Source of the DNA: Gammaproteobacteria bacterium
Lineage (GTDB): Bacteria > Pseudomonadota > Gammaproteobacteria > Tethybacterales > Persebacteraceae
DNA: 64,000 bases
Reading direction: 5' to 3'
Assembly (NCBI GenBank): GCA_965243565.1
Contig: OZ251571.1
Span: 905,129 to 969,128 of the forward strand
This document shows positions 320 to 27,053 of this stretch, piece by piece. The stretch's first letter is position 1. Each line of letters starts with the position of its first letter. Made by a program: the position numbers and the translations under genes. Under the pieces are notes generated by a model. The model saw only the letters and a program-made list of their open reading frames with translations, ran no database searches and was not told the origin of the DNA.

Positions 320-2391
320 TATCTTATTTTTGCCCCTGCTTTGGTTTGTGAATCTGGCGAAAGCAAAACAACACCGCCATCGGCTTCGGCTGCTAGTACC
401 ATACCATAAGACACACCAAACCGCATTTTACGCGGCTTTAAATTGGCAAGATAAACCACCTGTCGCCCGATTAATGTTTGTGGGTCGTAGTATTTGCGAA
501 TACCCGAAAAAACATCACGTGGTTCGCTCTGGCCAATGTCTAGTGTTAAGTGTAGCAGTTTATCTGCATCTTCTATAATTTTTGCATCAACGACAGTTGC
601 AACACACATCTGTATTTTTGCAAAATCATCAATCGTAATATCATTATCGATTGATGATTTTGTTTCTTTTGTTGTTTCTTCTGTTGCTTTTTTTGGCTGT
701 AACGACTGTAACGGCTGTGTTAATTGGTTAATCGTTTTGTCTTCGATGCGTTTTAATAAATGACTGAATTTACCTATAACATGGGCGTTTTTTAGCGGCA
801 TAATGCCATTTGCTGTCCATTGATATGGCTCATGCTGAAAAAATGCTAAAACATCTTGTGCTAGGCTGGGAATAATAGGTGATAAATAGCCGATTATGCA
901 ATCAAACTGACGCAATGCTCTAGAGCAGAGTTCGTGTAATTGTTGGTGTTGGGAGTCATCTTTTGCCATTATCCATGGTTTATGTGAGTCGATCTCGGCA
1001 TTGAGAGCATCAACATTATGCATAATAATTTGTACGACTTCGTGGTAGCGACGTTGCTCATAAGCACGTTTTAGCCTGTTTTGAGTGTTGCTGTCAATGC
1101 CACCAAAAGAATCAACATTGTTATCAAGTGTGTTGTCAAAATAGCGATTTAAAAAATTAGCGGTGCGGCTAGGGATATTAATCAGTTTACCAACCAAATC
1201 GCTATTAATTTTTAATTTAAAATCGTTTAAATTAAAGTCGATATCCTCTACATTATCGCTTAGCTTGCTCGCATAGTAGTAACGCAAATAATCAGGTTTT
1301 AGCCCGAGTTTGATGTAGCTCTCGGCAGTGATAAAAGTACCACGGGACTTTGACATTTTCTCGCCGTTAACAGTTAAAAAGCCATGCACGAAGAGTCGAG
1401 TAGGCCGTCTGTAACCACTGTTTTTTAACATTGTAGGCCAAAACAAGCCGTGAAAATACAAAATATCCTTACCAATAAAATGATACATCTCTGTTTTATT
1501 TAGTGTGTCATCTTCTGTACATCGGCAAAAATCGTCAAATACAATTGTTTTATTTTTATCACAGAGGTTTTTAAAACTAGCCAAATAACCAATTGGTGCA
1601 TCTAACCAAACATAAAAGTATTTTTCGTCTTTTATATCAGGAATTTGAAAACCAAAATAAGGCGGATCGCGTGATATGTCCCAATCATGTAATCCTTTTT
1701 CAAGCCACTCATTGAGTTTATTGGCAATTTGCTTCTGCAAGCGTGAACCCGATGCACCTTCGGCATCAATGGTTACAGTATCGCTTAGCCATTGCTTTAG
1801 CTCTGCTTCTTTTCCGGTTAATTTTAAAAAATAATGTAAAGAACTGCGTAATTTTGGTGTGGTGTTCGATATAGTGGAAATTGGGTTTTTTAGAGCGGTT
1901 GACTCATAAACCGTACCACAGGCTTCGCAGGAATCACCGTATTGATCTTCTTTGCCACACTGCGGACATTCTCCTTTAATGTATCTATCGGGGAGGAATA
2001 TTGATTGTTCTTCATCGTAAAGTTGATTAATTTCACGCTCGACTATACAATCATTATTACGTAAACTCAAGAAAATAGACTCCGCAAATGCTCGATTTTC
2101 ATCACTATGGGTACTGTGATAATTGTCAAAGTCGACATTAAAATCAGCAAAATCTTTCATGTGAGATTTTTGCATTGAATAAATCAATTGCTCAGGTAAT
2201 ATATTTTCGGCTTTTGCACGTAGCATAATCGGCGTGCCATGGGCATCATCGGCACAGACAAACCAGCATTCGTTACCGCACATTTTTTGATAACGTGACC
2301 AAATATCTGCTTGAATATACTCAACTAAATGACCGATATGAATATCACCATTGGCGTAAGGCAGTGCGGCGGTCATTAAAATTCTTCTCAT
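319..2391 (-). CDS. metG: Methionyl-tRNA synthetase
   Basis: 690-aa ORF with class I HIGH motif (PYANGDIHIGHL), KMSKS, a Zn-knuckle CPxCG and a C-terminal tRNA-binding domain; collinear with E. coli MetG. Confidence 0.95.
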   Translation of the reverse strand: MRRILMTAALPYANGDIHIGHLVEYIQADIWSRYQKMCGNECWFVCADDAHGTPIMLRAKAENILPEQLIYSMQKSHMKDFADFNVDFDNYHSTHSDENRAFAESIFLSLRNNDCIVEREINQLYDEEQSIFLPDRYIKGECPQCGKEDQYGDSCEACGTVYESTALKNPISTISNTTPKLRSSLHYFLKLTGKEAELKQWLSDTVTIDAEGASGSRLQKQIANKLNEWLEKGLHDWDISRDPPYFGFQIPDIKDEKYFYVWLDAPIGYLASFKNLCDKNKTIVFDDFCRCTEDDTLNKTEMYHFIGKDILYFHGLFWPTMLKNSGYRRPTRLFVHGFLTVNGEKMSKSRGTFITAESYIKLGLKPDYLRYYYASKLSDNVEDIDFNLNDFKLKINSDLVGKLINIPSRTANFLNRYFDNTLDNNVDSFGGIDSNTQNRLKRAYEQRRYHEVVQIIMHNVDALNAEIDSHKPWIMAKDDSQHQQLHELCSRALRQFDCIIGYLSPIIPSLAQDVLAFFQHEPYQWTANGIMPLKNAHVIGKFSHLLKRIEDKTINQLTQPLQSLQPKKATEETTKETKSSIDNDITIDDFAKIQMCVATVVDAKIIEDADKLLHLTLDIGQSEPRDVFSGIRKYYDPQTLIGRQVVYLANLKPRKMRFGVSYGMVLAAEADGGVVLLSPDSQTKAGAKIR

Positions 2392-2453
2392 AGTAGAATT
2401 TTATCATTGACAGGGTAAGCATAAGATGATTTTTATTTATTTATGCCCTGCTC

Positions 2454-2459
2454 TATAAT
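2454..2459 (+). promoter_or_regulatory. Candidate -10 hexamer (TATAAT) for the TRAP operon, in the metG/dctP divergent intergenic region
   Basis: Perfect TATAAT ~48 nt upstream of the dctP ATG; the -35 is weak. Seen in sequence only. Confidence 0.3.
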
Positions 2460-2506
2460 GAATACTATCCTAAATATTGCAAGATAATAAAAAGAGGATA
2501 ACAACA

Positions 2507-3583
2507 ATGAAAAGAAGAGATTTTTTAACTGCTGGTTTGGTGGCAGGTGCAGTTGGTAGCACATTGACAGCGCCAGCGGTTTTAGCAAAAGATAAAATAA
2601 AATGGAAAATGGTCACGACATGGCCAAAAAACTTTCCCGGTCTTGGTACAGGTGCCAATCAGCTGGCTAAGTACATTACCGAAATGTCTGAAGGTCGCCT
2701 AGAAGTAACGGTTTATGGTGGTGGTGAGATTGTCCCGCCATTGGGTATTTTTGATGCCGTATCCGAAGGTGTCGCCGAAATGGGGCATGGTGCTGCCTAT
2801 TACTGGAAAGGTAAAACCCAAGCGGCTCAGTTTTTTGCTACAGTGCCATTTGGTTTGACTGCAGATGAAATGAATGCATGGGTATATTACGGTGGTGGTC
2901 AAAAAATTTGGGATGACATTTATGCCGACTTTAACCTAAAGCCATTTTTAGCAGGTAATACTGGTGTACAAATGGGTGGCTGGTTTAATCGCGAGATTAA
3001 TACATTGGGAGATTTTAAAGGACTTATTATGCGTATGCCCGGCTTGGGTGGCGAAGTCCTAAGCAATATCGGTGCAACCCCTAAATTACTGCCCGGTGGC
3101 GAAATATTCACCTCTTTACAGACCGGTGCAATTGACGCAACCGAGTGGGTAGGTCCTTACAATGATTTGGCATTTGGTTTTTATAAAATAGCAAAATATT
3201 ATTATTACCCAGGTTGGCACGAGCCCGGTACCGCATTGGAGTCTTTTGTTAACAAAAAAGCGTATGATGCATTGCCTAAAGATTTGCAACGCGTTATTGA
3301 AGTTGCTTGTCAAGCCGCTAATAACGACATGCATGCCGAGTTTACCGCACGTAATGGCCAAGCACTGGATACACTGATTAACAAGCATAATGTTCAGCTC
3401 AAGCGTTTTCCTGATGATGTGGTTGAAAAACTGCGTGTCACCAGTGAAGAGGTTGTTGCCAATGTTGCCAATAGTGATCCTGCTAGCAAAAAGGCTTACA
3501 ATAGTTATATTAAATTCCGTGCGAATGTGGGTAAATGGACAACATTATCCGAAACCAACTATTCAAACGCTCGTAAACTTTAA
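2507..3583 (+). CDS. TRAP transporter solute-binding protein (DctP family) with a twin-arginine signal peptide
   Basis: Start chosen at MKRRDFLTAGLVAGAVGS...AVLA (Tat motif RRDFL), preceded by AAGAGGA. DctP-family length and motifs, followed by dctQ/dctM. Confidence 0.85.
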   Translation: MKRRDFLTAGLVAGAVGSTLTAPAVLAKDKIKWKMVTTWPKNFPGLGTGANQLAKYITEMSEGRLEVTVYGGGEIVPPLGIFDAVSEGVAEMGHGAAYYWKGKTQAAQFFATVPFGLTADEMNAWVYYGGGQKIWDDIYADFNLKPFLAGNTGVQMGGWFNREINTLGDFKGLIMRMPGLGGEVLSNIGATPKLLPGGEIFTSLQTGAIDATEWVGPYNDLAFGFYKIAKYYYYPGWHEPGTALESFVNKKAYDALPKDLQRVIEVACQAANNDMHAEFTARNGQALDTLINKHNVQLKRFPDDVVEKLRVTSEEVVANVANSDPASKKAYNSYIKFRANVGKWTTLSETNYSNARKL

Positions 3584-4135: not shown

Positions 4136-5509
4136 ATGACCGAGTTATTGCCTTTCTTTCTTTTTTTATTTGTCATTTTAATCTTATTGGCAGGATTTCC
4201 TGTTGCTTTTTCGCTAAGTGGTGGTGCATTAATATTTGCATTATTCGCTTATAGCTTTGATGTTTTTGACGCCAGTTTTTTAAGCGCAATCCCCTCTCGC
4301 CTTTATGGCATTATGACCAACGAAACGCTTATTGCGGTGCCGTTGTTTGTGTTTATGGGAACGTTGCTAGAGCATAGCAAAATATCTGAAGATTTATTAG
4401 AAGAGATGGGGCGTGCCTTTGGCAAGATGCGAGGTGGACTCGCTATATCGGTTTGCATTGTCGGTGCTATCTTGGCAGCATCGACTGGTATTGTTGGTGC
4501 GACTGTGGTTACCATGGGTTTAATATCATTGCCGGTTATGTTACGACACAAGTATAACCCTGCCCTATCTTGTGGTGTTATTAGTGCTTCTGGCACGTTG
4601 GGACAGATTATCCCACCGTCCATTGTCTTGGTTTTATTGGGGGATGTTATTAGCAATGCCAATCAAAAGGCACAACTAGAAGCTGGTAATTTTTCGCCCG
4701 ATACCGTATCGGTTGGCGATTTGTTTTTTGGTGCGTTAATTCCCGGGTTAATGCTGGTGGGAATGTACATAATTTATATTGTAATTACGGTAATTATAAA
4801 ACCGCATTGGGCTCCTCCCATCATGCAAAACAAAACAGATGAACACAAAAGTTTGCATATTTTTTCGGCACTATGGGCACCAATTGTTTTAATCATTGCC
4901 GTTTTAGGGACTATTATCATGGGCTTTGCCACCCCCACCGAAGCGGCAGCAGTCGGTGCTTTTGGCGCAATTATATTGGCTTCTATTAAAAAAACATTGT
5001 CTCTATCGATACTGAAAAAAGCAATGCACCAAGCCACTCGCATTAGCTGCATGGTATTTACCATTTTTATTGGTGCCAATATTTTTTCGTTGGTTTTTAG
5101 AGGTTTGGGCGGTGATGGAGTAGTAGTAGAAGCTTTAAACAACCTACCGGGTGGCGTTATTACTGCCTTTTTTACGGTAATGTTAATCATGTTTATCTTG
5201 GGCTTTTTTCTTGATTTTATCGAAATTGTTTTTGTGGTTGTCCCTATTGTTGCGCCTATCCTAATACAAATGGGCTTAGACCCAATTTGGTTGGGTATTA
5301 TGATTGCCATTAACCTACAAACATCTTTTTTAACACCACCATTTGGTTTTGCACTTTTTTATCTAAGAGGCGTTGCCCCACCTTCGATAAAAAGTAAAGA
5401 TATTTATCTGGGGGTGATCCCCTTTATTATAATTCAGCTGCTATTGCTGGTTTTATTGTGGTTTTATCCCAACCTAATAACATGGTTGCCTCATAAAATA
5501 TACAATTAG
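4136..5509 (+). CDS. TRAP transporter large permease subunit (DctM-like)
   Basis: 457-aa polytopic membrane protein with DctM-family similarity; start overlaps the dctQ stop. Confidence 0.9.
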   Translation: MTELLPFFLFLFVILILLAGFPVAFSLSGGALIFALFAYSFDVFDASFLSAIPSRLYGIMTNETLIAVPLFVFMGTLLEHSKISEDLLEEMGRAFGKMRGGLAISVCIVGAILAASTGIVGATVVTMGLISLPVMLRHKYNPALSCGVISASGTLGQIIPPSIVLVLLGDVISNANQKAQLEAGNFSPDTVSVGDLFFGALIPGLMLVGMYIIYIVITVIIKPHWAPPIMQNKTDEHKSLHIFSALWAPIVLIIAVLGTIIMGFATPTEAAAVGAFGAIILASIKKTLSLSILKKAMHQATRISCMVFTIFIGANIFSLVFRGLGGDGVVVEALNNLPGGVITAFFTVMLIMFILGFFLDFIEIVFVVVPIVAPILIQMGLDPIWLGIMIAINLQTSFLTPPFGFALFYLRGVAPPSIKSKDIYLGVIPFIIIQLLLLVLLWFYPNLITWLPHKIYN

Positions 5510-5740
5510 ACCTTTAGCAAAAAATCACTCGCTGATGCCCTTGTTATCGGCATCAATCCCTTACCAAATTAGACGATGTTGCAATAAATTTTTCTGGTAG
5601 TTTTTGCATAGCGTTCTCATAGTCATGGACTTGCCCCGTTAACAGAAATACAACACACGCCACCCAAGTATGACAGTTATATCAACAAACATAAAATCAT
5701 TTGGTAGAATCGACAACCCATTCTATAAAACTAATTATTT

Positions 5741-6988
5741 ATGATAATACTATCTGATAAACAACCATTTGCACAAGGTGGCAACCGCTATGTATTTGTT
5801 CATCCACAAGACAGCAACAAATGCATTAAAATATTGCAACCACATCGCTTAAGCAAGTTTGTACGACCGTATTATAAGTTTCCTCGAAATTTACGTGGTC
5901 TAAATCATTATGATGATAATTTACGTGAGCAAAAAGGGTATCGTTATGTTGATTCAATACCACAACAACACGATGCATATAAACACATTCCACACTATTA
6001 TGGTTTAGTAAAAACCGATATTGGATACGGTAGTGTGTCTCAACTTATGCGTGATTATGATGGCAACATTAGTAAGACATTAAGGCAATACTTGCAAGGA
6101 TTTGTAGCAGGAACAGAAGATAAAACCTATATTGACCACGTTAACGAACTTAAATCATTTATACGAGAAATATCTTTTATATCAAAAAAATTAACACCAC
6201 AAAACATATTATCAGTGCGTATTAATGAACACCAACGACGGTTATATATAATAGAAGGGTTTGGTACACAAGAATGGATTCCCCTAGTACGTTATGTCCC
6301 TTTCTTGAAAAAAAGGAAAATAGAGCGTACGCTCCACGCCTTTGATAAAAGAATAGATGTTGAATTTTCTCTCATCAAAAACACAGTAATATTATCTGCC
6401 AATGATTATTTTGCAGCGGGCAGAACACGACGTTGTTATGTTTCTCCACAGAACCCCAGTCAATGTTTAAAAATCGTTATTCCCGGTAGCGACGGTCTAA
6501 AACTCAGGAACAAAAAATACCGCCGCCTTTTTCCTGCCTCGCGTTACAATCCAAACATGATAGAATGGCGTTGCTACCAAAAAGTTGAAAAAATGAATGA
6601 CGAAACACTCTGGCAGCATATTCCTCGTTGCTATAGTTTTGTTAATACTAATATTGGACAAGCACTGGTTTTAGAATTACTATGCCATGCCGATGGTAGC
6701 ATCTCCACACCTCTTATTCAAAGGATTCAACAGGGGGTGGACGAATCATTACTATCTGCCTATAATGAATTTCTTGATTTTATCCGTCGAAGTGGTTTTT
6801 ATACAACAGAAGTTAATAATATAAATTGCGTTCGCCTACCAGATGGTAGTGAACGCCTCTATTTTGTTGAATGTAGATACCGTCGCCCTGGGTTAACTTT
6901 CATTCCCGCTATTCGCCGCCGCCGTTTAGAGAGAATAATACAAACACGCATTTACCCCGCTTTTAATAAATATGCCAAGCAAAAATAA
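5741..6988 (+). CDS. Tandem-duplicated YrbL-family (PhoP regulatory network, kinase-like fold) protein
   Basis: Two consecutive YrbL-like modules. Module 1: SDKQPFAQGGNRYVFVHPQDSNKCIKI. Module 2: AAGRTRRCYVSPQNPSQCLKIV. Both match the E. coli YrbL N-terminus (SEQSPLGTGRHRKCYAHPEDAQRCIKIV). Confidence 0.7.
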   Translation: MIILSDKQPFAQGGNRYVFVHPQDSNKCIKILQPHRLSKFVRPYYKFPRNLRGLNHYDDNLREQKGYRYVDSIPQQHDAYKHIPHYYGLVKTDIGYGSVSQLMRDYDGNISKTLRQYLQGFVAGTEDKTYIDHVNELKSFIREISFISKKLTPQNILSVRINEHQRRLYIIEGFGTQEWIPLVRYVPFLKKRKIERTLHAFDKRIDVEFSLIKNTVILSANDYFAAGRTRRCYVSPQNPSQCLKIVIPGSDGLKLRNKKYRRLFPASRYNPNMIEWRCYQKVEKMNDETLWQHIPRCYSFVNTNIGQALVLELLCHADGSISTPLIQRIQQGVDESLLSAYNEFLDFIRRSGFYTTEVNNINCVRLPDGSERLYFVECRYRRPGLTFIPAIRRRRLERIIQTRIYPAFNKYAKQK

Positions 6989-14031: not shown

Positions 14032-15504
14032 GTGCAATACTTTCCATTCTTTCTAAATATCCACACGAAACTGGTTTTACTGGTTGGCGGTGGCGTGGTG
14101 GCACAACGTAAAGCCGACTTGCTACAAAAAGCGGGCTGCCACCTGCGTCTTGTTGCCCCGACTGTCCGTAGCGATTTGGAGGCATTATTACAGCATAATG
14201 GCACTGTCTCTAAACGCCCGTATCAACCAGATGATATTACTGGTTGTACGCTGGTGGTGTGCGCTACAAATGATGAAGCGATTAATGCACGCGTTTCTGC
14301 CGATTGCCGCCAGCGTGGCGTGCCGGTAAATGTGGTGGACTGCCCTGCTCTGTCTGATTTTATTTTTCCGGCACTGATTGACCGCTCACCGCTCACTGTT
14401 GCTGTTTCTAGTGCTGGTGCTTCGCCGGTGTTGGCGCGACGGGTGCGCGAAAAAATTGAATCTTCATTGCCAATGGCAACCGGTGCACTAGCGGTGTTTT
14501 GCGAAGAACACCGCCAAACGGTTAAAGACGCACTGCCGCCGCAGAAGCGTCGCCTGTTTTGGGAGGATGTACTGGATAGCGAAATTGCTGAAAATATATT
14601 AGCCGGTAACAGTGCCGATGCCAAGACGATGCTACTGCAACGTTTACAGCAGTTTGGTACTGACAGCGATAAAATCGGTCAGGTTTATCTGATTGGTGCT
14701 GGTCCCGGTGCAGCGGATTTACTTACTTTTCGTGCACTGCGTTTACTACAACAGGCTGATGTGGTGGTGCATGACCGTTTGGTTTCTACCGAAGTGCTGG
14801 CACTGGCGCGACGCGATGCCGAGAAAATTTTTGTCGGTAAATGCCGCAACCAACAGCTGATGAGTCAGGAAGAAATTAATCAGTTACTCATTAATCTGGC
14901 ACGTAAAAATCTGCGCGTGGCACGCCTAAAAGGTGGCGACCCGTTTATCTTTGGGCGTGGTGGCGAAGAATTACAGGCATTACGTGCTGCCAACATCCCG
15001 ACACAAATTGTACCCGGCATTACCGCCGCTAGTGGTTGCGCTGCGAGCGTGGAGATGCCGCTTACCTATCGCCATCTTGCGCGTAGCGTGCGTTTTGTTA
15101 CTGTTTATGAGCAAGATAAACAAGATGCTCATTTTTGGCAGAAACTGGCGAATGAACAGGACACGACACAGGTGTTTTATATGGCGGGGGCGACCATGGC
15201 GTTTGTTTGTGAACGCCTTATTGCCGCTGGGAGCAAACCGCAAACGCCGGCGGTGTTAATATGTGGCGGTACCACCACAGCACAGCAGCATTTTAGCGCA
15301 ACGCTAGAAACGCTACCCGCAATGGCATCATCAAAATGGTTTTCGCCGGCATTGCTGGTGGTGGGTGAAGTCGCTGCCCTTGCCCGTAAAAGTTACGATG
15401 CCATCGCTACCGCTTCTACCTCGAATGCTTCTATTGAGCATTTATTTATGAATTTACAACATGGAGAATCTCATGCTATCAACCAACCAATGGGAATCTA
15501 TTAA
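14032..15504 (+). CDS. cysG: Siroheme synthase (precorrin-2 dehydrogenase/ferrochelatase + uroporphyrinogen-III C-methyltransferase)
   Basis: N-terminal Rossmann VLLVGGGVVAQRKADLL and C-terminal methyltransferase motifs GAGPGAADLLT and GGDPFIFGRGGEE. The exact start is uncertain. Confidence 0.9.
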   Translation: MQYFPFFLNIHTKLVLLVGGGVVAQRKADLLQKAGCHLRLVAPTVRSDLEALLQHNGTVSKRPYQPDDITGCTLVVCATNDEAINARVSADCRQRGVPVNVVDCPALSDFIFPALIDRSPLTVAVSSAGASPVLARRVREKIESSLPMATGALAVFCEEHRQTVKDALPPQKRRLFWEDVLDSEIAENILAGNSADAKTMLLQRLQQFGTDSDKIGQVYLIGAGPGAADLLTFRALRLLQQADVVVHDRLVSTEVLALARRDAEKIFVGKCRNQQLMSQEEINQLLINLARKNLRVARLKGGDPFIFGRGGEELQALRAANIPTQIVPGITAASGCAASVEMPLTYRHLARSVRFVTVYEQDKQDAHFWQKLANEQDTTQVFYMAGATMAFVCERLIAAGSKPQTPAVLICGGTTTAQQHFSATLETLPAMASSKWFSPALLVVGEVAALARKSYDAIATASTSNASIEHLFMNLQHGESHAINQPMGIY

Positions 15505-17269
15505 CTCGTTAGTAGGGGATCTTAATTCCGAACAACGGCTTTGGCTTTCTGGCTATCTTGTCGGGCTGGATAATACACCGCTCGCACTGCCACCTATCGT
15601 AACTGCTGCTACTGCTAACGAAGCAACAACTGCTACACCGATAACGATTGTTTATGGGTCGCAAGGCGGCAATGGCAAGCAAATCGCCACTGCAATGGCA
15701 CAGCTACTTACCAATGTCGCTGTTGATAACCGCGTGGTGTCGCTGGCAGATTATAAAACGGCGTGGTTAAAAAAAGAGCGTTTTCTGTTTATTGTTGTCA
15801 GCACGCATGGCGAAGGCGAACCGCCTGATGATACGAAAGTATTTTATGATTTTATTTTTAGTAGTCGCGCCCCGGCACTGGCGAAACTAAAATATGCGAC
15901 ACTGGCACTGGGCGACAGCAGTTACGAGTTTTTTTGCAAAATCGGGCAGGATATTCACGAACGGTTAGAGCAACTGGGGGCGCAGGCATTGCAGTCGGTG
16001 GTGGAGTGCGATACCGATTACGAACAATCTGCGACAAAATGGCAACAAAACATCACCGACATGATGAAGCAAGAAGAGCCAAAACACAATGGTAGCAATG
16101 GTAGCAATGGTGTACTGCTACTGCCGACAACCGCTAACACCATTACCCTACCCGTCGTCGCCATCGACAACACTCCAACACGGGCGCAACCTTTTACTGC
16201 GCCGATAATTGAGCATATTATGCTTACCACACCACCACGCCGTACGCTACATATAGAGCTGGCACTAGAAGACGCAAACATAGATTATCGCCCCGGCGAT
16301 GCCATTGGTATTTTTCCACAAAACCCGCCCGCCACTGCCGACAAGGTAGCAACGACACTAGGATTAACGGCACAGCAAACACTTACCATTGACGAAGAAA
16401 CTGCTAATGTTAGTGAGTGGATGATTAAACGGTTAGACATTAGCCGCCCGACTGCTCATGCGCTAAATCGCTATCAGAAAATTATCAACAGCACTAAACT
16501 GGGCAAGCTGCTTGATGATAAAAAAGCACTTGGTAAGTATATTAATGGACGCGATTATGGCGATGTTTTTTGCGATTTTCCGCCGCTACCTGAACAGCAA
16601 AGTCAGGCACTTTCTTGCCTGCGGCGGCTGGCACCACGTTTGTATTCGCTGGCATCTTCGCGCGCGCTACGCGACGATGAGGCGCATTTACTGGTTGCCG
16701 TCAGTGACTATAACGGTCATGATACGGCAATACGCAACGGGGTATGCTCGCAGTATCTGGCAACGCAACAGGCAGGAGACACGGTAGATATTTATTTACA
16801 GCGTAATGATAATTTTCGCCTACCGACAGACGGCAATACGCCGATTATCATGATTGGACCCGGCACTGGTATCGCTCCATTTCGCGCTTTTATGGAAGAG
16901 CGTGAAGCCGCTGGCGATGCTGGTGCTAACTGGCTATTTTTTGGCAACCGCCACCGCCGTGATGAATTTTATTATCAAACCGAATGGCAGGGGTATGGTA
17001 AAAATGGTTTGCTTACACGGTTAGATGTCGCGTTTTCACGCGATGGTACGCAAAAAATATACGTGCAAGATAGACTGCAACAGCACGGTGGCGATATTTG
17101 GCAATGGTTGCAAGACGATGCACATATCTATGTCTGCGGCGATACCAACATGGCATCCGATGTACATGAACGGCTATCGGCGATTATCGGCGAACATCAC
17201 GGTGGCGACAGCAATACTTATTTACAGCAAATGCAAACTGACGGACGCTACCAACGCGATATATATTAA
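15461..17269 (+). CDS. cysJ: Sulfite reductase [NADPH] flavoprotein alpha subunit
   Basis: Flavodoxin-like N-terminus, FAD/NADPH oxidoreductase C-terminus (RLYSLASS, GPGTGIAPFRAF). Confidence 0.9.
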   Translation: MENLMLSTNQWESINSLVGDLNSEQRLWLSGYLVGLDNTPLALPPIVTAATANEATTATPITIVYGSQGGNGKQIATAMAQLLTNVAVDNRVVSLADYKTAWLKKERFLFIVVSTHGEGEPPDDTKVFYDFIFSSRAPALAKLKYATLALGDSSYEFFCKIGQDIHERLEQLGAQALQSVVECDTDYEQSATKWQQNITDMMKQEEPKHNGSNGSNGVLLLPTTANTITLPVVAIDNTPTRAQPFTAPIIEHIMLTTPPRRTLHIELALEDANIDYRPGDAIGIFPQNPPATADKVATTLGLTAQQTLTIDEETANVSEWMIKRLDISRPTAHALNRYQKIINSTKLGKLLDDKKALGKYINGRDYGDVFCDFPPLPEQQSQALSCLRRLAPRLYSLASSRALRDDEAHLLVAVSDYNGHDTAIRNGVCSQYLATQQAGDTVDIYLQRNDNFRLPTDGNTPIIMIGPGTGIAPFRAFMEEREAAGDAGANWLFFGNRHRRDEFYYQTEWQGYGKNGLLTRLDVAFSRDGTQKIYVQDRLQQHGGDIWQWLQDDAHIYVCGDTNMASDVHERLSAIIGEHHGGDSNTYLQQMQTDGRYQRDIY

Positions 17270-17288
17270 TGGCAAGCAATGGCAAACA

Positions 17289-18968
17289 ATGACAACTGAT
17301 AACAGTAAAACACCGCCACTCTCGGCAGTGGAAATTATTAAGAACAACAGCGATTATCTGCGCGGTAGTATTTGTAGCGGATTAGCCGAAGAGACCAGCG
17401 GCGCAATATTTGAAGACGACACAGTATTGGTAAAATTTCATGGCATATACCAACAAGATGACCGTGACCAGCGCGATGAACGGGCGCGGCGAAAACTGGA
17501 ACCAAACTATTCATTTATGCTACGCTTGCGTGTACCCGGCGGCTTGCTAAACGCCGAACAATGGCTTGCTGTAGATGAAGCAGCAACCACGCTCACCGAA
17601 GCCGGCAGTTTGCGGCTCACCACACGCCAAACATTGCAGTTTCACGGCATCCCCAAAGAAAACCTACGCCCATTAGTAAAAAAATGCTACCAACAACTGC
17701 TGGATTCCATTGCCGCCTGCGGTGATGTTAACCGCAATGTCATGTGTTCTCCACATCCTGACATCTCGCCGTTGCACCGTCAAGCACATGAAGTTGCTAC
17801 CGCCATCAGTGAAGCACTACTACCGACAACCCGTGCTTATTTTGAAATTTGGTTAGGCGAAGAACGGCTTGCCGACTCCACAGCAGACACAAACACCAAT
17901 GAAACGACAGACCCACTGTATGGCAAACATTATTTACCGCGAAAATTTAAAATCGGCATTGCCGTGCCACCGTCAAATGATATTGATGTTTATTCGCAAG
18001 ACATTGGTTTTATCGCCATAGCAGAAAACGGAGAATTACAGGGTTTTAATGTACTTGCTGGCGGCGGCTTAGCCACCACGCACAGCGATGAACGCACTTA
18101 TCCGCGCTTAGGCAGCGAAATCGGCTTTTGCACAGTGGCGCAAGCGGTAGAGGTTGCTTGGCACATCGCCGCTTGGCAACGCGATAATGGAGACCGTAGC
18201 GACCGCAAGCAAGCACGGCTAAAATACACAATAGATCGACGTGGTGTGGATGTTTTTGTGCAAGAATTACAGCAACGGCTAGGGTATTGTTTGCCGCCAC
18301 CACGCACGGTATCGTTAACATACCGCAGTGATTTATTAGGATGGCAGCAACGAACAGATGGGCTGTGGGACATGGGATTGTTTATTGAAAACGGCAGAAT
18401 TACCGCCGACTCACCGCTACAAAAAGCATTACAACAGATTGCGAAAAAAAACATCTGCCAATTTATGATGACGCCAAATCAAAACCTGATGTTAATCGGG
18501 CTAAACAATAGCGGCAGAAAAAAAGTACAAACGGCATTGAAAAATATATCCGATATTACCCCATCTTCTGCCCTGCGCGAAAACTCAATGGCGTGTGTGT
18601 CATTTCCAACCTGTCCGCTGGCAATGGCAGAAGCCGAACGTTATCTACCCTCATTAATTACTTTGCTGGAACAGGAATTGGAAAAACATCATCTAACAAA
18701 AGAAGCGATTAGCATTCGCATGACCGGCTGCCCCAACGGTTGCGCCCGCCCGTATATAGCAGAAATCGGATTAGTCGGAAAATCGCCCGGGCATTATAAT
18801 TTATATCTCGGTGCCTCCGCCAATGGCGACCGCATAGGCAAATTAGTCGGCGAAGGATTGACGGAACAGCTAATATTAGAAAAAATCAATCCACTACTCG
18901 CCACCTACGCTAAAAATAAAAAATCAAATGAATCCTTCGGCGATTTCGTACTGGCAACACTAATATAA
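17289..18968 (+). CDS. cysI: Sulfite reductase hemoprotein beta subunit
   Basis: Start set at MTTDNSKTPP, in frame with the longer track ORF; siroheme/4Fe-4S Cys cluster CPNGCARP near the C-terminus. Confidence 0.9.
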   Translation: MTTDNSKTPPLSAVEIIKNNSDYLRGSICSGLAEETSGAIFEDDTVLVKFHGIYQQDDRDQRDERARRKLEPNYSFMLRLRVPGGLLNAEQWLAVDEAATTLTEAGSLRLTTRQTLQFHGIPKENLRPLVKKCYQQLLDSIAACGDVNRNVMCSPHPDISPLHRQAHEVATAISEALLPTTRAYFEIWLGEERLADSTADTNTNETTDPLYGKHYLPRKFKIGIAVPPSNDIDVYSQDIGFIAIAENGELQGFNVLAGGGLATTHSDERTYPRLGSEIGFCTVAQAVEVAWHIAAWQRDNGDRSDRKQARLKYTIDRRGVDVFVQELQQRLGYCLPPPRTVSLTYRSDLLGWQQRTDGLWDMGLFIENGRITADSPLQKALQQIAKKNICQFMMTPNQNLMLIGLNNSGRKKVQTALKNISDITPSSALRENSMACVSFPTCPLAMAEAERYLPSLITLLEQELEKHHLTKEAISIRMTGCPNGCARPYIAEIGLVGKSPGHYNLYLGASANGDRIGKLVGEGLTEQLILEKINPLLATYAKNKKSNESFGDFVLATLI

Positions 18969-19307
18969 CACCGTAGTAACAAGATTTTTTTCATAGAAGC
19001 AATTGTCCCTCGATAGTTCAGTTTGTAGTGCAAGTAACTGAAATTAAAAATTCAAACCTTTAGTTGTAAATGTGAATTATGCAAATATCTCAATCTAATT
19101 CACCCCGAACGAACTGAGCCATAGAAAATACGACAGTAGCCATCAACCCTATCAGTGTCAATCGCTGGTTTTATAGGGTATGTCCAACAACTACACGATA
19201 TTGACAACCCGTAGGGCAAAATATTGTTAGGTATGCTAGAGTAAAAGCATAAAAGTTTGCAAAGTGAGATTGCAAAGTGAGATTGCAAAAATCATGAGGG
19301 GAGAATT

Positions 19308-19598: not shown

Positions 19599-20603
19599 AT
19601 GAAAACATTAACACGAGCAAAAGTAATAAAATCCATGGCAATTATCGGTGCTTTATTACTGACACCAATGACTTCTTATGCCGCCGATAAATTTACCTTG
19701 CAGCTCAAGTATTTAACACAAGCACAGTTTGCTGGTTATTATGTGGCACAAGACAAAGGCTTTTATGCCGATGAAGGCTTGGATGTAGAAATCAAACCCG
19801 GCGGTCCCAACATTGCACCGCCGCAAGTTCTTGCGGATGGAGGTGCCGATGTGATTGTCGAATGGATGCCCGCTGCACTGGCTTCACGCGAAAAAGGGTT
19901 GGCACTGGTTAACGTCGCTCAACCGTTCAAATCTTCGGGCATGATGCTTACTTGTCGTAAAGACAGCGGTATTAAATCACCCAGTGATTTTCGCGGACGC
20001 ACGTTGGGCGTATGGTTCTTTGGTAATGAATATCCGTTTTTGTCATGGATGAGTCAGTTGAGAATCCCCACCGACGGTTCTGACAACGGCGTAACGGTAC
20101 TCAAGCAAGGTTTTAACATAGATCCCATTTTACAAAAAGAGGCGGACTGCATTTCTACCATGACCTATAACGAATACTGGCAGATTATTGATGCTGGCTT
20201 AGGTGCAGACGAGCTGATTGTTTTTAAATATCAAGACCGAGGCGTAGCAACGCTAGAAGACGGTTTGTATGTACTAGAAGAAAATCTAAAAGACAGTGCT
20301 TTTAAAGACAAATTGGTAGGCTTTGTGCGTGCTTCGATGAAAGGCTGGAGATGGGCTGAAAGATATCCCAACGAGGCGACAGACATTGTGCTAGAAAATG
20401 ACTTGACGGGTGCCCAAACAAAAAAACACCAGCGGCGTATGATACGTGAAATCAGAAAATTAATGGCGGGTTCTAACGGATCTTTGGATGAAGAAGATTT
20501 TCAACGGACAGTTGACACCTTGCTCGAAGGTGGCTCTACCCCCGTCATTACCGAAGAACCACAAGGTGCTTGGACTCACGAAATTACTGACGAAGCGTTG
20601 TAA
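19599..20603 (+). CDS. Periplasmic solute-binding protein, NMT1/THI5-like (sulfonate/nitrate/pyrimidine-type ABC SBP), orphan
   Basis: 334 aa, signal peptide, NMT1/SsuA-like fold motifs (QLKYLTQAQFAGYYVAQDKGFY). No permease or ATPase gene adjacent. Confidence 0.7.
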   Translation: MKTLTRAKVIKSMAIIGALLLTPMTSYAADKFTLQLKYLTQAQFAGYYVAQDKGFYADEGLDVEIKPGGPNIAPPQVLADGGADVIVEWMPAALASREKGLALVNVAQPFKSSGMMLTCRKDSGIKSPSDFRGRTLGVWFFGNEYPFLSWMSQLRIPTDGSDNGVTVLKQGFNIDPILQKEADCISTMTYNEYWQIIDAGLGADELIVFKYQDRGVATLEDGLYVLEENLKDSAFKDKLVGFVRASMKGWRWAERYPNEATDIVLENDLTGAQTKKHQRRMIREIRKLMAGSNGSLDEEDFQRTVDTLLEGGSTPVITEEPQGAWTHEITDEAL

Positions 20604-23034: not shown

Positions 23035-25662
23035 TTATTTTTGCTCGGTATTATTAAGATAGAGTTCGCGACATTCACCTGGGTTTAATTTTTCAGGTAA
23101 GTGAAAACTGCCAAACCGTACCCGAATCAAACGACTGATGCCTATATCATAATGCTCGAATATACGACGGACGATTCTATTTTTGCCTTCGTTTAATATT
23201 ATTCGATACCAAGAGTTTACGCCTTCGCCTTCAATTTCTAATTTAAAATGAGACGGGCGTATAAGGTCTTTTCCTTCTAAAACCAAGCCGTTTTCTAAAA
23301 TATCAGCGATACTACTTTCATCTAACGCTCTATCTGCACGAATGCGGTATTCTCTTTCATAGCCATTAGATGGATGTGAATATTGATGTACCCAATCGCC
23401 ATTGGTTGAAAATAATAGTAGCCCTTCTGTTGCAACATCCAAACGCCCAACGCTCATCCAACGTCCGTTGTCTAATGTGGGTAAGTCTTCAAAAACAGTA
23501 TCAATTCCGTCGCTTTCGACAATTTTTCCGACGGGCTTGTAATAAGCCAACCATCTGTCTGGAATGTCTTGCACTGTGATTACTTTATCGTTGACGAGAA
23601 CTTTATCGGTCGGTGTGACGCGTTGTCCTACCGTTGCGATTTCACCGTTGACTGTGACTACACCAGATTCTATGAGTGTTTCCATTTTTCGCCGTGAACC
23701 CAAACCGGCAGTGGCAAGCATTTTTTGCAATTTTTCATCATTGTTCTTAGGTGCATTATCTACGTGAGGTCCGTTATTTAAATTAACCCATTTGCTGATT
23801 GTTTTTTCTTGAGATGGTTTTTTATCTGATTGCTCTCTATTATCGGAAAAATGAGGTTTATCATTGTCGCCTCGATCTGGTCTATCACCTCCGTTGTCAG
23901 AAAAACGGGGCTGGGCTGGGCGATCTTCATAGGGGCGATTACCACCGCCACTGTCTTTATCTGAAAATTTTGGTTTATCACCATCGCCAACTGGTCTGCC
24001 ACCGCCTGATGGTCTATCTCCATATGATGGTCTATCTCCATATGATGGTCTGCCGCCGCCTGATGGTCTATCTCCATATGATGATCTGCCGCCGCCTGAT
24101 GGTCTATCTCCAAATGGTGGTCTGCCACCGCCTGATGGTCTATCTCCATAAGATGGTCTGCCGCCGCCTGATGGTCTATCTCCATAAGATGGTCTGCCGC
24201 CGCCTGATGGTCTATCTCCATATGATGGTCTGCCACCGCCTGATGGTCTATCTCCATATGATGGTCTGCCACCGCCTGATGGTCTATCTCCATAAGATGG
24301 TCTGCCACCGCCTGATGGTCTATCTCCATAAGATGGTCTGCCGCCGCCTGATGGTCTATCTCCACGAGATGGTCTGCCGCCGCCTGATGGTCTATCTCCA
24401 TATGATGGTCTGCCACCGCCTGATGGTCTATCTCCATAAGATGGTCTGCCTCCGCCTGATGGTCTATCTCCATATGATGGTCTGCCACCGCCTGATGGTC
24501 TATCTCCATAAGATGGTCTGCCACCGCCTGATGGTCTATCTCCATATGATGGTCTGCCACCGCCTGATGGTCTATCTCCATAAGATGGTCTGCCGCCGCC
24601 TGATGGTCTATCTCCATATGATGGTCTGCCGCCGCCTGATGGTCTATCTCCATATGATGGTCTGCCACCGCCTGATGGTCTATCTCCATATGATGGTCTG
24701 CCGCCGCCTGATGGTCTATCTCCATAAGATGGTCTGCCGCCGCCTGATGGTCTATCTCCATATGATGGTCTGCCACCGCCTGATGGTCTATCTCCATAAG
24801 ATGGTCTGCCGCCGCCTGATGGTCTATCTCCATATGATGGTCTGCCTCCGCCTGATGGTCTATCTCCATATAATGGTCTGCCGCCGCCTGATGGTCTATC
24901 TCCATATGATGGTCTGCCTCCGCCTGATGGTCTATCTCCATATGATGGTCTGCCACCGCCTGATGGTCTATCTCCATAAGATGGTCTGCCTCCGCCTGAT
25001 GGTCTGCCACCGCCTGATGGTCTATCTCCATAAGATGGTCTGCCGCCGCCTGATGGTCTATCTCCATATGATGGTCTGCCGCCGCCTGATGGTCTATCTC
25101 CATGAGATGGTCTGCCACCACCTGATGGTCTATCTCCATGAGATGGTCTGCCACCGCCTGATGGTCTATCTCCATAAGATGGTCTGCCACCGCCTGATGG
25201 TCTATCTCCATAAGATGGTCTGCCGCCGCCTGATGGTCTATCTCCATATGATGGTCTGCCACCGCCTGATGGTCTATCTCCATAAGATGGTCTGCCGCCG
25301 CCTGATGGTCTATCTCCATGAGATGGTCTGCCACCGCCTGATGGTCTATCTCCATAAGATGGTCTGCCGCCGCCTGATGGTCTATCTCCATAAGATGGTC
25401 TGCCACCGCCTGATGGTCTATCTCCATATGATGGTCTGCCACCGCCTGATGGTCTATCTCCATATGATGGTCTGCCACCACCTGATGGTCTATCTCCAAA
25501 TGGTGGTCTGCCGAATCTTGGTCTGTCGCCTGATGAGGCTTTGTCAAAGTCGCTGCGCGGTCTATCGCTTGTTTTGTTGTGTCGTGAGGAATCGTTAGAT
25601 GTATTTTTTACGTCGGCAGAATTGGTTGATTGAGATTTTGTCTCGTCTTTTTGTGGTGTCAT
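23035..25662 (-). CDS. rluB: 23S rRNA pseudouridine synthase RluB with a ~640-aa N-terminal low-complexity (SYGDRPSGGGRP)n extension
   Basis: C-terminal 233 aa are a canonical S4 domain + RsuA/RluB catalytic domain (EKLQKMLATAGLGSRRKMETLIESG...GRLDVATEGLLLF). Upstream, in the same frame, ~42 twelve-residue repeats. Conserved scpA-scpB-rluB synteny, 55-bp gap to scpB. Confidence 0.8.
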   Translation of the reverse strand: MTPQKDETKSQSTNSADVKNTSNDSSRHNKTSDRPRSDFDKASSGDRPRFGRPPFGDRPSGGGRPSYGDRPSGGGRPSYGDRPSGGGRPSYGDRPSGGGRPSYGDRPSGGGRPSHGDRPSGGGRPSYGDRPSGGGRPSYGDRPSGGGRPSYGDRPSGGGRPSYGDRPSGGGRPSHGDRPSGGGRPSHGDRPSGGGRPSYGDRPSGGGRPSYGDRPSGGGRPSGGGRPSYGDRPSGGGRPSYGDRPSGGGRPSYGDRPSGGGRPLYGDRPSGGGRPSYGDRPSGGGRPSYGDRPSGGGRPSYGDRPSGGGRPSYGDRPSGGGRPSYGDRPSGGGRPSYGDRPSGGGRPSYGDRPSGGGRPSYGDRPSGGGRPSYGDRPSGGGRPSYGDRPSGGGRPSYGDRPSGGGRPSYGDRPSGGGRPSYGDRPSGGGRPSRGDRPSGGGRPSYGDRPSGGGRPSYGDRPSGGGRPSYGDRPSGGGRPSYGDRPSGGGRPSYGDRPSGGGRPSYGDRPSGGGRPPFGDRPSGGGRSSYGDRPSGGGRPSYGDRPSYGDRPSGGGRPVGDGDKPKFSDKDSGGGNRPYEDRPAQPRFSDNGGDRPDRGDNDKPHFSDNREQSDKKPSQEKTISKWVNLNNGPHVDNAPKNNDEKLQKMLATAGLGSRRKMETLIESGVVTVNGEIATVGQRVTPTDKVLVNDKVITVQDIPDRWLAYYKPVGKIVESDGIDTVFEDLPTLDNGRWMSVGRLDVATEGLLLFSTNGDWVHQYSHPSNGYEREYRIRADRALDESSIADILENGLVLEGKDLIRPSHFKLEIEGEGVNSWYRIILNEGKNRIVRRIFEHYDIGISRLIRVRFGSFHLPEKLNPGECRELYLNNTEQK
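23992..25512. repeat. Tandem array of ~42 copies of a 36-bp unit (GGTCTGCCACCGCCTGATGGTCTATCTCCATATGAT) inside the rluB 5' region
   Basis: Direct visual periodicity of 36 bp across ~1.5 kb; one 18-bp half-unit variant. Substitutions are mostly at positions synonymous in the RluB frame. Confidence 0.95.
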
Positions 25663-25716
25663 TATTGTGTTTCGGTTAGGTGAGAGGTGCTACATAAAGC
25701 AATGAATAAGTGTTTT

Positions 25717-26286
25717 TCATTCTGCTACGGTAGTGTTTGTGTTTTCGTTAATGATGTCATCTAGGTTTTCTAGCGTGGGTAGTTCGTCAAATGATATTAA
25801 CCCTAGATCATCTAATAGTGTTTTTGTTGTTGCGTATAGTGTTGGTCTTCCCGGCGTTGGTTTTTGCCCGACTGCCTCGATCCAATGGAGCTCTTCTAAA
25901 AAGCTAATTTGTGAGTTAGAAACGGCAATGCCGCGTAGTTTTTCTATATCGCCGCGCGTAACGGGCTGTTGATAGATGATGATTGAGAGGACTTCGAGCA
26001 TAGAGCGAGAGAATTTAGGCGGGCGTTGTGGGTTTAATCGCCTTAAGTATGGCTGGTAATCGGCATGGCTGATTAATTGATATCCCCCTGCACTTTCGAT
26101 TAATTTAAAAGCCCTGTTTTGCCATGTTGTTTGTAAATTTTTAATCGCTTGGCGTATGTTGTCATTATCTATATCTTCGTCATCAATAATCTTTTTAAAG
26201 GAGTTTATGGTTAATGGTTCATTGGCAACCAATAAACTTAGTTCAATAACGTTTTCAATTAAGCTGAGGTTGGGTTTTTCGCTCAT
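25717..26286 (-). CDS. scpB: Segregation and condensation protein B
   Basis: 189 aa, winged-helix ScpB motifs (IENVIELSLLVANEPLT...). Confidence 0.85.
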   Translation of the reverse strand: MSEKPNLSLIENVIELSLLVANEPLTINSFKKIIDDEDIDNDNIRQAIKNLQTTWQNRAFKLIESAGGYQLISHADYQPYLRRLNPQRPPKFSRSMLEVLSIIIYQQPVTRGDIEKLRGIAVSNSQISFLEELHWIEAVGQKPTPGRPTLYATTKTLLDDLGLISFDELPTLENLDDIINENTNTTVAE

Positions 26287-27053
26287 ATATTTTTTTCAGT
26301 TGTCTGTTCGATTATTAATTCATCGTCATCTTGTTCTTGTTTTAGCACAACCATTTTTTCTAGTTGCATTTGTAATAACGCCATAAAGGTTATACCACCT
26401 TGTTTTGGTTTGACCACTTCAAAAAAAGAAAAAGATCTTTTTTTGGCAAAAAAACGAATTATTTCACTCATAACAGCACGAATGCTGATGGTTTCAGGAA
26501 TGACTTTATAATTTTCATTGGCTTTTAATCGCGCCATTAAGCTGGCAAATGCATTGCTAATTTGTGATGCATTAATAACAGGTTTTTGCACTGTTAGTGG
26601 AATTTCGACAGAAACCAATGGCGATGTAAAATCTCTACTTCGGCGTGATAGTTGGTCAAATGAGGCAGATACGGTTTTGATGCGTTCGTATTCTAATAGT
26701 TGTCTAACCAAATCAGCCCTAGGATCGTTTTCGTCTTCGTCTTCGATGACAATGCGAGGTAACAACATTTTGGTTTTTATTTCGATTAAAAGAGCGGACA
26801 TAGACAAATAATCAGCAACGGTTTCCATATCGCTATGTAATATTTCTTCCATATAGGCAATGTATTGTTTACAAAGTGCTGTCATGGGGATATCAAGAAC
26901 ATCAAATTTATGTTTTCTAACCAAATATAACAATAAATCCAACGGACCTTCAAACATCTGTAATTGGACTCTTAGTGCTTTTGGAGGTAAGTAAAGTGCA
27001 GAGGGGAGTTCGTTTAAAATTTCGCCCTGAACACGAATAATAGAATCTGACAT
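26283..27053 (-). CDS. scpA: Segregation and condensation protein A (kleisin)
   Basis: 256 aa; LDLLLYLVRKHKFDVLDIPMTALCKQY matches ScpA. Confidence 0.85.
   Translation of the reverse strand: MSDSIIRVQGEILNELPSALYLPPKALRVQLQMFEGPLDLLLYLVRKHKFDVLDIPMTALCKQYIAYMEEILHSDMETVADYLSMSALLIEIKTKMLLPRIVIEDEDENDPRADLVRQLLEYERIKTVSASFDQLSRRSRDFTSPLVSVEIPLTVQKPVINASQISNAFASLMARLKANENYKVIPETISIRAVMSEIIRFFAKKRSFSFFEVVKPKQGGITFMALLQMQLEKMVVLKQEQDDDELIIEQTTEKNI

Follow-up and report, generated by a model that had tools for sequence, protein, structure and literature searches.

An RluB-type pseudouridine synthase with a 641-residue, predicted-disordered N-terminal tandem-repeat tail

In Escherichia coli, the pseudouridine synthase RluB (structures 4LAB and 4LGT) consists of an S4 domain followed by a catalytic domain and carries a disordered basic tail (PMC3919597). 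This tail comprises the C-terminal 40 residues and is poorly conserved, and the roles of the catalytic-site residues are described in the same work (PMC3919597). E. coli RluB also co-fractionates with rne, deaD, and srmB (PMC13106914). Here we analyzed a 64,000-nucleotide stretch of the gammaproteobacterial contig OZ251571.1 (the window), in which the gene following scpB encodes an RluB with the same two domains in the same order. In contrast to the E. coli enzyme, whose tail of ~40 residues is C-terminal and non-repetitive, the window protein ends three residues after its core and bears an N-terminal tail of 641 residues with 42 tandem units, almost certainly translated in the RluB frame to judge from sequence comparisons.

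Charged, low-complexity appendages are known from other bacterial RNA enzymes. In CsdA, Arg/Gly/Pro-rich tails bring about condensation at rDNA loci and the recruitment of factors for ribosome biogenesis (bioRxiv 10.64898/2026.09.17.752289); tails of RhlE (PMC11260450) and insertions in Rho (PMC11347177, PMC10284900) have also been described. CsdA/DeaD, RhlE, RNase E with its C-terminal domain, and Rho resemble the window protein in that a lineage-variable appendage of this type sits on an RNA-enzyme core. Their appendages raise RNA binding or condensation; the window tail is likened to them by sequence. They differ from it in their position, which is mostly C-terminal or internal, in their lesser length, and in lacking near-perfect tandem repetition, and none is found on a pseudouridine synthase. 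By the features that mark such bacterial basic appendages, the window protein is one of them: it has a predicted-disordered Arg/Gly/Pro-rich segment on an RNA-enzyme core, and among its relatives the composition of the tail is kept while its sequence has turned over.

The folded core occupies the last ~233 codons, where Pfam places the S4 and PseudoU_synth_2 domains (Table 1) and where an earlier note, made from the window's letters by a model, had located it. The GRLD (catalytic Asp and intercalating Arg), EREY (Tyr), and NRxVRR (Arg) motifs are intact in alignment with 4LAB and invariant in the homologue alignment, so that Arg108, Asp110, Tyr140, and the NRxVRR arginine of E. coli RluB all have equivalents. 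The best NCBIfam match was RluB with 191.7 bits (RluF 85.8, RsuA 67.4, RluE 32.4). A structure–sequence comparison of the core gave E = 5.4e-53 to E. coli RluB 4LAB, to which it is ~44% identical, and 6.6e-23 to RluF. The RluB score lies below the NCBIfam equivalog cut-off of 290 bits, and the TIGR00093 subfamily cut-off is narrowly exceeded (110.9 vs 109.3). We therefore base orthology on the best match and on synteny rather than on the equivalog threshold; together these support the view that the gene is the organism's RluB, of the 23S rRNA pseudouridine-2605 synthase type within the RsuA/RluB/RluE/RluF group. Because the match to the RluB model covers positions 2–237 of 291, leaving the last 54 model positions (the C-tail) without a counterpart, the window RluB lacks an E. 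coli-type C-terminal tail, as had been proposed.

The N-terminal extension is joined to this core in one open reading frame (ORF). It holds 42 copies of SYGDRPSGGGRP, equal to 84 half-units of 18 nt, in good agreement with the ~640-residue domain of ~42 36-bp repeats first reported. Tandem Repeats Finder (TRF) detected a 36-nt period in two calls (27.8 + 14.3 copies, 94–95% identity, scores 1683 and 911), far above chance. Half-units of the YGDRPS and GGGRPS types alternate strictly save for two extra half-units (Table 1). The extra GGGRPS puts the 36-nt units out of register and so divides the array into two TRF calls, with the break near 24998–25005. Head-to-tail 18- and 36-nt units at this identity are a feature of coding minisatellites, and the array has a G+C content of 54% against ~39% around it. 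Slippage by units whose length is divisible by three leaves the frame unchanged, and we therefore rejected an on/off contingency locus. A collagen-like reading was rejected because Gly does not occupy every third residue.

Variation between units is limited to three synonymous columns, two of them at ~50% frequency, and five non-synonymous ones. One Gly third position is GGT in 21 units, GGC in 17, and GGA in 4, another is GGC in 40 and GGT in 2, and the Ser third position is split evenly (TCA 21, TCT 21). The earlier note had seen this variation at Gly and Ser correctly; the CCA/CCG variation that it added is absent. All array Pro codons are CCA except for one P-to-S substitution, none is CCG, and the 'ccg' read on the plus strand arises from GGC-GGC on the minus strand. 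Tyr is replaced in six units by H (3), F (2), or R (1), and there are four singleton non-synonymous variants besides; a Leu that had been counted among the Tyr replacements in fact replaces Ser. Any one non-synonymous variant is confined to at most 3 of the 42 units, whereas synonymous variants reach ~50%. Degenerate versions of the units stand on both flanks, as would be expected if a young, homogenized center lay between older, diverged edges.

Is the array translated, and in which frame? As stated earlier, three of the six frames have no stop codon across it. Codon usage tells more here than the differences between units: read in the RluB frame, the array has a codon adaptation index (CAI) of 0.746, within the range of 0.674–0.776 in 33 reference genes, and both other stop-free frames fall below that range (0.525 and 0.55). 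Between units, the ratio of non-synonymous to synonymous differences (pN/pS) was 0.155–0.166 in the RluB frame, 0.8–1.2 in the other open sense frame, and ~4 in the open antisense frame; the unit pairs behind these ratios are not independent. An exact rank test on the variable columns gave a one-sided p of ~0.125, and by event count at least seven non-synonymous changes stand against at least four synonymous ones. The synonymous bias within the array thus has the direction that had been claimed for it, but it rests on about two columns. The motif appears to be held by purifying selection, with the peptide rather than the DNA conserved, and the analysis supports this view.

The convincing evidence for translation is comparative rather than internal to the array, and on the sequences available we regard it as decisive. 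In the closest relative found (L089; LysS 80% and RluB core 75% identical) the frame is open upstream of S4 as far as the short-read contig extends. Over the 38 alignable codons of the linker that joins array and core, the window and this relative differ with a pS of 0.71 and a pN of 0.31, giving a dN/dS of ~0.19. The block KTISKWVNL within the linker is identical in L089 and related to SKWISP in L005. No in-frame ATG, GTG, or TTG lies between codons 1 and 645 of the window ORF, and the sole near-cognate start there, ATC622, falls inside the KTISKWVNL block. It follows that any protein containing the conserved linker has to begin at ATG 25662 and takes in the whole array. A start at M648 would remove EKLQK, the residues with which the conserved part of S4 begins and which form the N-terminal end in E. 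coli RluB. The claim that the array is translated in the RluB frame thus stands on the linker, the missing internal start, codon usage, and the relatives described below.

The array is composed of 33% G, 17% R, 17% P, 16% S, 8% D, and 7% Y, with a net charge of +43; the whole extension carries 97 Arg, a net charge of +45, and a pI of 10.6. Ile, Leu, Val, Met, Cys, and Trp together occur nine times in its 641 residues, nearly all outside the array, whose only aliphatic residues are a Leu and a Val, each a singleton substitution. One aromatic residue recurs every 12 residues between Gly/Ser/Pro spacers. In an AlphaFold2 model of residues 480–874, built from a 29-sequence alignment, residues 480–635 had a pLDDT of ~40 and zero secondary structure, and the core including S4 reached ~90 or higher. 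The tail is accordingly predicted to be an intrinsically disordered, strongly cationic segment, and the basic, Gly/Arg/Pro/Ser/Tyr-rich low-complexity region of the earlier note is recovered. A search of PDB sequences with the array returned only spurious low-complexity matches. Because every array Arg precedes Pro, the tail should be nearly invisible to tryptic proteomics: trypsin leaves a 384-residue fragment, to which standard shotgun methods are almost blind.

RGG/RG (GAR) domains are defined by clusters of two or three RGG or RG motifs. The tail had been called an RGG domain rich in Arg-Gly-Gly, which its sequence contradicts: it contains no RGG and 2 RG, together with 42 GGR, 43 GR, and 89 RP. 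It is Gly/Arg-rich and predicted disordered, without clustered RGG or RG. The low-complexity regions of FUS, EWS, and TAF15 are built of Tyr and Arg stickers separated by Gly/Ser spacers, and in this the array is alike, with many [G/S]Y[G/S] motifs (35 SY and 36 YG dipeptides; 35 SYG, one per unit). Unlike the FUS family, the tail has no RGG and places every Arg of the array before Pro, it has almost no Gln or Asn in the array and is not of near-uncharged polar composition, and it interleaves Tyr, Arg, and Asp in one segment instead of pairing a neutral prion-like domain with separate RGG boxes. Gar1, a protein of H/ACA pseudouridylation, has Gly/Arg-rich domains, and the window protein likewise pairs such an appendage with pseudouridylation.

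The proteins nearest the window core (43–53% identity, all from uncultured bacteria) have long in-frame N-extensions and essentially no C-tail. Orthologues in L001–L005, L091, and L092/P0513 keep open, basic, repeat-rich N-terminal extensions. As in the window, a basic tandem extension after scpB is present in MCH9758498.1, P0370, the L001–L004 ORF, and P0131 (617 aa, GCA_044337985.1). These long homologues share units of Arg, Pro, Asp, and Gly plus an aromatic residue (GGGFRGDRP, RPSYRDRGP, RPSYGDRPDRPA), and the close relatives among them have little or no C-tail. They differ from the window protein in their units of 26, 53, 61, or 12 residues, in 3–20 copies, and in extensions of ~295–492 residues. 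With its 26-residue repeats, the 637-residue MCH9758498.1 is already in NCBI, and the window protein is an extreme case of a known architecture. In L091 the synteny is identical from the aminotransferase gene to rluB, which starts 3 nt after scpB. Between the four co-occurring L001–L004 strains, the N-extension shows 87 synonymous to 62 non-synonymous differences in the RluB frame and 26:123 and 30:119 in the other frames, while the core shows 31 synonymous and 0 non-synonymous ones; we conclude that the extension is coding and under relaxed constraint.

To place these cases, we surveyed the best 149 cluster representatives at 50% identity from 1.84 billion proteins. Their N-extensions have a median of 177 residues, measure at least 100 in 119 representatives and at least 300 in 19, and reach a maximum of 492; the median C-extension is 168 residues. 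In GTDB genomes, most gammaproteobacterial RluBs have 1–10 N-terminal residues and a C-tail of 40–70, and basic N-extensions also occur in Burkholderiaceae (~140 residues) and in Ewingella/Hafnia/Rouxiella (113–172). The window extension is the longest seen and its array the most homogeneous. Given the 119 of 149 representatives and the relatives' own tandem arrays, a long N-terminal extension is, on these sequences, typical of the lineage, with the window as its most extreme case. The idea that an E. coli-like tail was relocated and hugely expanded, drawn from E. coli as the sole comparison, is not upheld.

No second strain or close species for a comparison of copy number turned up in a contig scan with the core, a scan of genome contigs with the sub-family alignment, or metagenome scans at the DNA and protein levels. 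The scan with the core gave no relative, the sub-family scan returned generic gamma- and beta-proteobacterial RluBs only (at most 47% identity), the array DNA had no match in metagenomes, and the best metagenome protein was at most 49% identical. Several relatives are poorly represented in public data. The rluB of L001–L004 is called as a 244-aa wrong-frame ORF plus a 219-aa RluB without S4, and that of L005 as a 215-aa fragment, despite its single 524-aa ORF. The contig of L089 (2099–2931) ends 42 codons upstream of S4, and that of L092 (1–380) begins inside an array. Both are short-read assemblies, and since such contigs end at or inside the repeats, RluB arrays appear to be systematically under-assembled in metagenomes.

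Table 1 Coordinates and contents of the window rluB locus (positions in the window) and of extended relatives (positions in their own contigs)
Feature	Positions	Strand	Length or residues	Basis or content
Full rluB ORF	23035..25662	minus	875 aa, ~91.7 kDa, pI ~10.0	ORF listing, Pfam, NCBIfam
Non-repeat leader	25501..25662	minus	aa 1-54	Ser/Asp/Arg/Thr-rich; ends in degenerate units DRPRSDF, GDRPRFGRPPFGDRPS
Tandem array	23989..25500	minus	aa 55-558	42 YGDRPS-type and 42 GGGRPS-type half-units; TRF and unit table
Extra GGGRPS half-unit	24979..24996	minus	aa 223-228	half-unit order
Extra YGDRPS half-unit	24007..24024	minus	aa 547-552	half-unit order; near array 3' end
Degenerate-repeat linker	23740..23988	minus	aa 559-641	KPKFSDKD, GGGNRPYEDRP, QPRFSDNGGDRPDRGDNDKPHFSDN
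KTISKWVNL block	23779..23805	minus	aa 620-628	upstream of S4 and of every internal ATG/GTG/TTG
S4 RNA-binding domain	23599..23733	minus	aa 644-688	PF01479, E = 1.1e-9; aligned to 4LAB
Pseudouridine-synthase catalytic domain	23152..23553	minus	aa 704-837	PF00849 (PseudoU_synth_2)
Spacer, scpB stop to rluB ATG	25663..25716	minus	54 nt	direct sequence reading
scpB	25717..26286	minus		Pfam
scpA	26283..27053	minus		Pfam
L001-L004 (HiFi metagenome)	5056-6660		534-aa ORF	three 183-nt units, RPRFAAGDE...RFGGRPGGFRSGPPRN...
L005 (Tara)	1532-3106		524-aa ORF	Lys/Arg/Pro/Ser-rich extension
L091 / P0370 (metagenome)			727 aa	492-aa extension; 159-nt units (RERPSYRDRGP...)
L092 / P0364; full-length P0513 = MCH9758498.1 'pseudouridine synthase'			637 aa	~twelve 26-residue (78-nt) units PRDGFRSDRPRPPRSDGGGFRGDRPP

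A search with the extension alone led to DEAD-box helicases of the Microbacteriaceae with N-terminal (ERPSYGDRPQRS)n repeats (P0126 of Clavibacter michiganensis and ~95 others; carriers include Clavibacter, Subtercola, and Agreia) and to 'primosomal protein' entries of Aurantimicrobium and Rhodoluna (P0230/P0213) with RPSYGDRPQRGD units. The octapeptide RPSYGDRP is common to all of these and the window protein. Like the window protein, the helicases carry it in 12–13-residue N-terminal tandem units on an RNA enzyme; they belong to another phylum, are a different enzyme, and have no GGG half-unit. The same search returned S4-containing pseudouridine synthases of 560–617 aa with N-terminal (RPSYGDRPDRPA)n or GDKPAWGDRPQRSDRPSYGDKPRF units, whose core, to judge from sequence, is Bacteroidota-like. 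One such more distant synthase (L007, GCA_044337985.1) has its (RPSYGDRPDRPA)n array of 20 36-nt units directly downstream of scpB. At the DNA level these units are only 85% identical, yet the peptide is conserved: pN/pS is 0.33 in the reading frame and exceeds 1.3 in the others. The protein occurs in five variants whose cores are 98–100% identical and whose arrays run from 16 to 20 units, so that an array analogous to that of the window is polymorphic in copy number while staying in frame. The ScpB of L007 (3863–4978) measures 371 aa, about twice the usual ~190–220, and may carry an extension too.

We rejected [FYW]GD[RK]P as a general hallmark of RluB tails: the tails of 269 homologues selected by their core contained it a single time, and relaxed versions were enriched mainly through P0370 and P0364. 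The aromatic-GD-RP theme recurs in a few lineages, and its likeness to the helicase repeats is probably convergent, since the L007 codons differ and the strict motif is so rare. In the literature on 'SYGDRP' and on pseudouridine synthases with disordered or tandem-repeat tails, we found no description of such proteins.

What might the tail do? On balance we favor the view that RluB is translated from ATG 25662 with a disordered, polycationic tail that tethers the enzyme to RNA, possibly promotes condensates, and changes in length by slippage. The 641 residues would stand in for the short basic C-terminus of the E. coli enzyme. They could serve as a multivalent, sequence-unspecific RNA tether with a sticker-and-spacer layout, which would raise the local concentration of RluB on nascent 23S rRNA or pre-50S particles. 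By analogy with CsdA, RhlE, RNase E, and Rho, the tail may also promote RNA-dependent self-association into condensates. The array would grow and shrink by slippage or unequal recombination in steps of 18 or 36 nt; such steps preserve the frame, making its length rapidly tunable.

Several observations weigh against this account. The basic tail of E. coli RluB is dispensable for binding of the substrate stem-loop (PMC3919597). The repeat units of the relatives, at 36, 78, 159, and 183 nt, fit a weak or purely compositional constraint, and the selection statistics within the array draw on few independent mutations (the 3 synonymous and 5 non-synonymous columns). An exact look-up of the 875-aa product in a collection of 15 billion proteins found no entry, whereas four neighboring proteins of the same contig, which is present in NCBI and ENA, do have one, so the locus is evidently handled otherwise in public gene calls; nor does that collection contain three internal-start products or either of the alternative-frame ORFs. 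Finally, ATG 25662 has no Shine-Dalgarno (SD) sequence. The internal candidate starts have none either, and as over half of the genes in the window do without one (median anti-SD pairing at 36 gene starts, −0.3 kcal/mol), this absence is uninformative. With such a median, start codons in this genome cannot be judged by their ribosome-binding sites.

It is possible, though we find it rather doubtful, that the array is a tolerated minisatellite: a basic tail would be useful or harmless, and its 42 copies a near-neutral runaway expansion in which neither length nor exact motif is functional and which keeps its frame solely because frameshifts would kill RluB. This would explain why the unit type and length of the relatives are wholly different, why copy number varies in the analogous array among near-identical strains, and why the N-extension takes 13–34 of the 15–38 differences in each L001–L004 strain comparison when the core stands at 31:0. 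The homogeneous center and degenerate edge units point to recent expansion, and non-synonymous events are no rarer than synonymous ones within the array. Yet every full-length relative of the sub-lineage has an extension of ~290–641 aa, in genomes of ~1.4–2 Mb that are prone to lose useless DNA. Non-synonymous variants stay at or below 3 of 42 units when synonymous ones reach ~50%, the codon usage of the array is host-adapted, and the aromatic-Gly-Asp-Arg-Pro theme recurs in other RNA enzymes. An artefact of assembly, affecting the copy number or the whole array, we hold to be improbable. A tract of 1.5 kb of 94–95% identical 36-nt units is hard to assemble, and the short-read contigs of relatives do break at or near their arrays (L089, L092), but the source is a single contig of 1,684,200 bp, the variants are irregular and non-periodic, two half-unit indels leave the frame intact over 1,512 nt, and comparable arrays of relatives came out the same in the HiFi assemblies of four strains.

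The remaining doubts concern translation and the reach of the proposed function. If RluB started at TTG645 or ATG648, the repeats would lie outside the protein, as a minisatellite in a 5' leader or between genes that just happens to be free of stops. ORF length is weak evidence where three of six frames are open, the upstream ATG has no SD, and gene callers shortened the L001–L005 orthologues to 215–219 aa. Against this stand the linker upstream of codon 645, conserved as protein; the lack of any start codon from codon 1 to 645; internal starts that are no better provided with an SD, one of which (M648) truncates S4; a synonymous bias in L001–L004 that is limited to the RluB frame; and the full-length annotation of 637- and 727-aa relatives by NCBI and other callers. 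We consider an untranslated array very unlikely. A product of another stop-free frame, HMEIDHQAVADH on the same strand or MVYLHMMVCRRL on the opposite one, can practically be dismissed: ORFs of 589 and 599 aa do exist, but their CAI falls outside all reference genes, their pN/pS is far higher than that of the RluB frame, and both are absent from the protein collection. In L007, moreover, one of the counterpart frames has 2 stops in the array, and the two open ones have a pN/pS of ~1.9–2.2. At the other extreme, RluB may have become more than an enzyme in this reduced-genome symbiont lineage. The aromatic-Gly-Asp-Arg-Pro unit could be a true short linear motif, amplified independently in ribosome-biogenesis enzymes of at least three phyla (the window RluB, the Bacteroidota-like RluB, and the Microbacteriaceae DEAD-box helicases), and the 42-valent array could nucleate a nucleolus-like condensate for rRNA maturation, possibly offsetting assembly factors that were lost as the genome shrank. 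We give this scaffold role, and the grouping of these three lineages, only a slim chance.

The biology of bacterial condensates rests on a handful of disordered tails, those of RNase E, RhlE, CsdA, and Rho. In the window RluB, a well-understood rRNA-modifying enzyme is joined to a sticker-and-spacer polymer of natural origin, extreme in size and highly regular (42 identical valencies, net charge +45), and related genomes supply a natural series of unit types and lengths. It is a handy test case for how valency relates to RNA tethering or condensation, and for the role of the ubiquitous and ignored tails of RluB. On the practical side, genes of this sort are wrongly split by gene callers and interrupt short-read assemblies, and tryptic proteomics is blind to their products. 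Should the tail be a merely tolerated repeat expansion, the finding would be a curiosity.

By Pfam, the gene order at the locus is Aminotran_4 (a class-IV aminotransferase), yrdC (a yrdC-family gene), trpS, scpA, scpB, and rluB, and it is the same in L001–L004 and L091. The scpA–scpB–rluB order given earlier is thus correct, with the spacer one nucleotide shorter than the 55 bp stated. We found neither an SD nor a terminator-like site on the minus strand of this spacer, and an Rfam scan of the window yielded one tRNA only and nothing at the rluB locus.

The window probably comes from a small-genome symbiont of a marine invertebrate with Persebacteraceae/Tethybacterales affinity, a placement inferred from modest identities. 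Its best named LysS match is Candidatus Persebacteraceae bacterium Df01 (= Ca. Doriopsillibacter californiensis), at 62% identity. The Tethybacterales are betaproteobacterial symbionts of sponges and other invertebrates, and cysIJ is listed as distinctive of the Persebacteraceae (PMC8546597). The window contains a CysJ-like gene (flavodoxin/FAD/NAD; 15461–17269, plus strand) and a CysI-like gene (sulfite reductase haemoprotein; 17025–18968, plus strand), which fit this affinity; as the two ORFs overlap by 245 nt, the CysI-like start is probably later than listed. Also in keeping with a symbiont is a eukaryote-like ankyrin-repeat protein of 431 aa (41620–42915, minus strand; Ank_2, E = 5.5e-87), of a kind typical of host-associated bacteria, whose gene is made of 99–102-bp tandem repeats with 76–77% identity. 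A further, perfect tandem repeat has a 13-bp unit (TTGCAAAGTGAGA x 2.5); it spans 19257–19289, and an NMT1/THI5-like gene follows after ~300 bp, at 19599.

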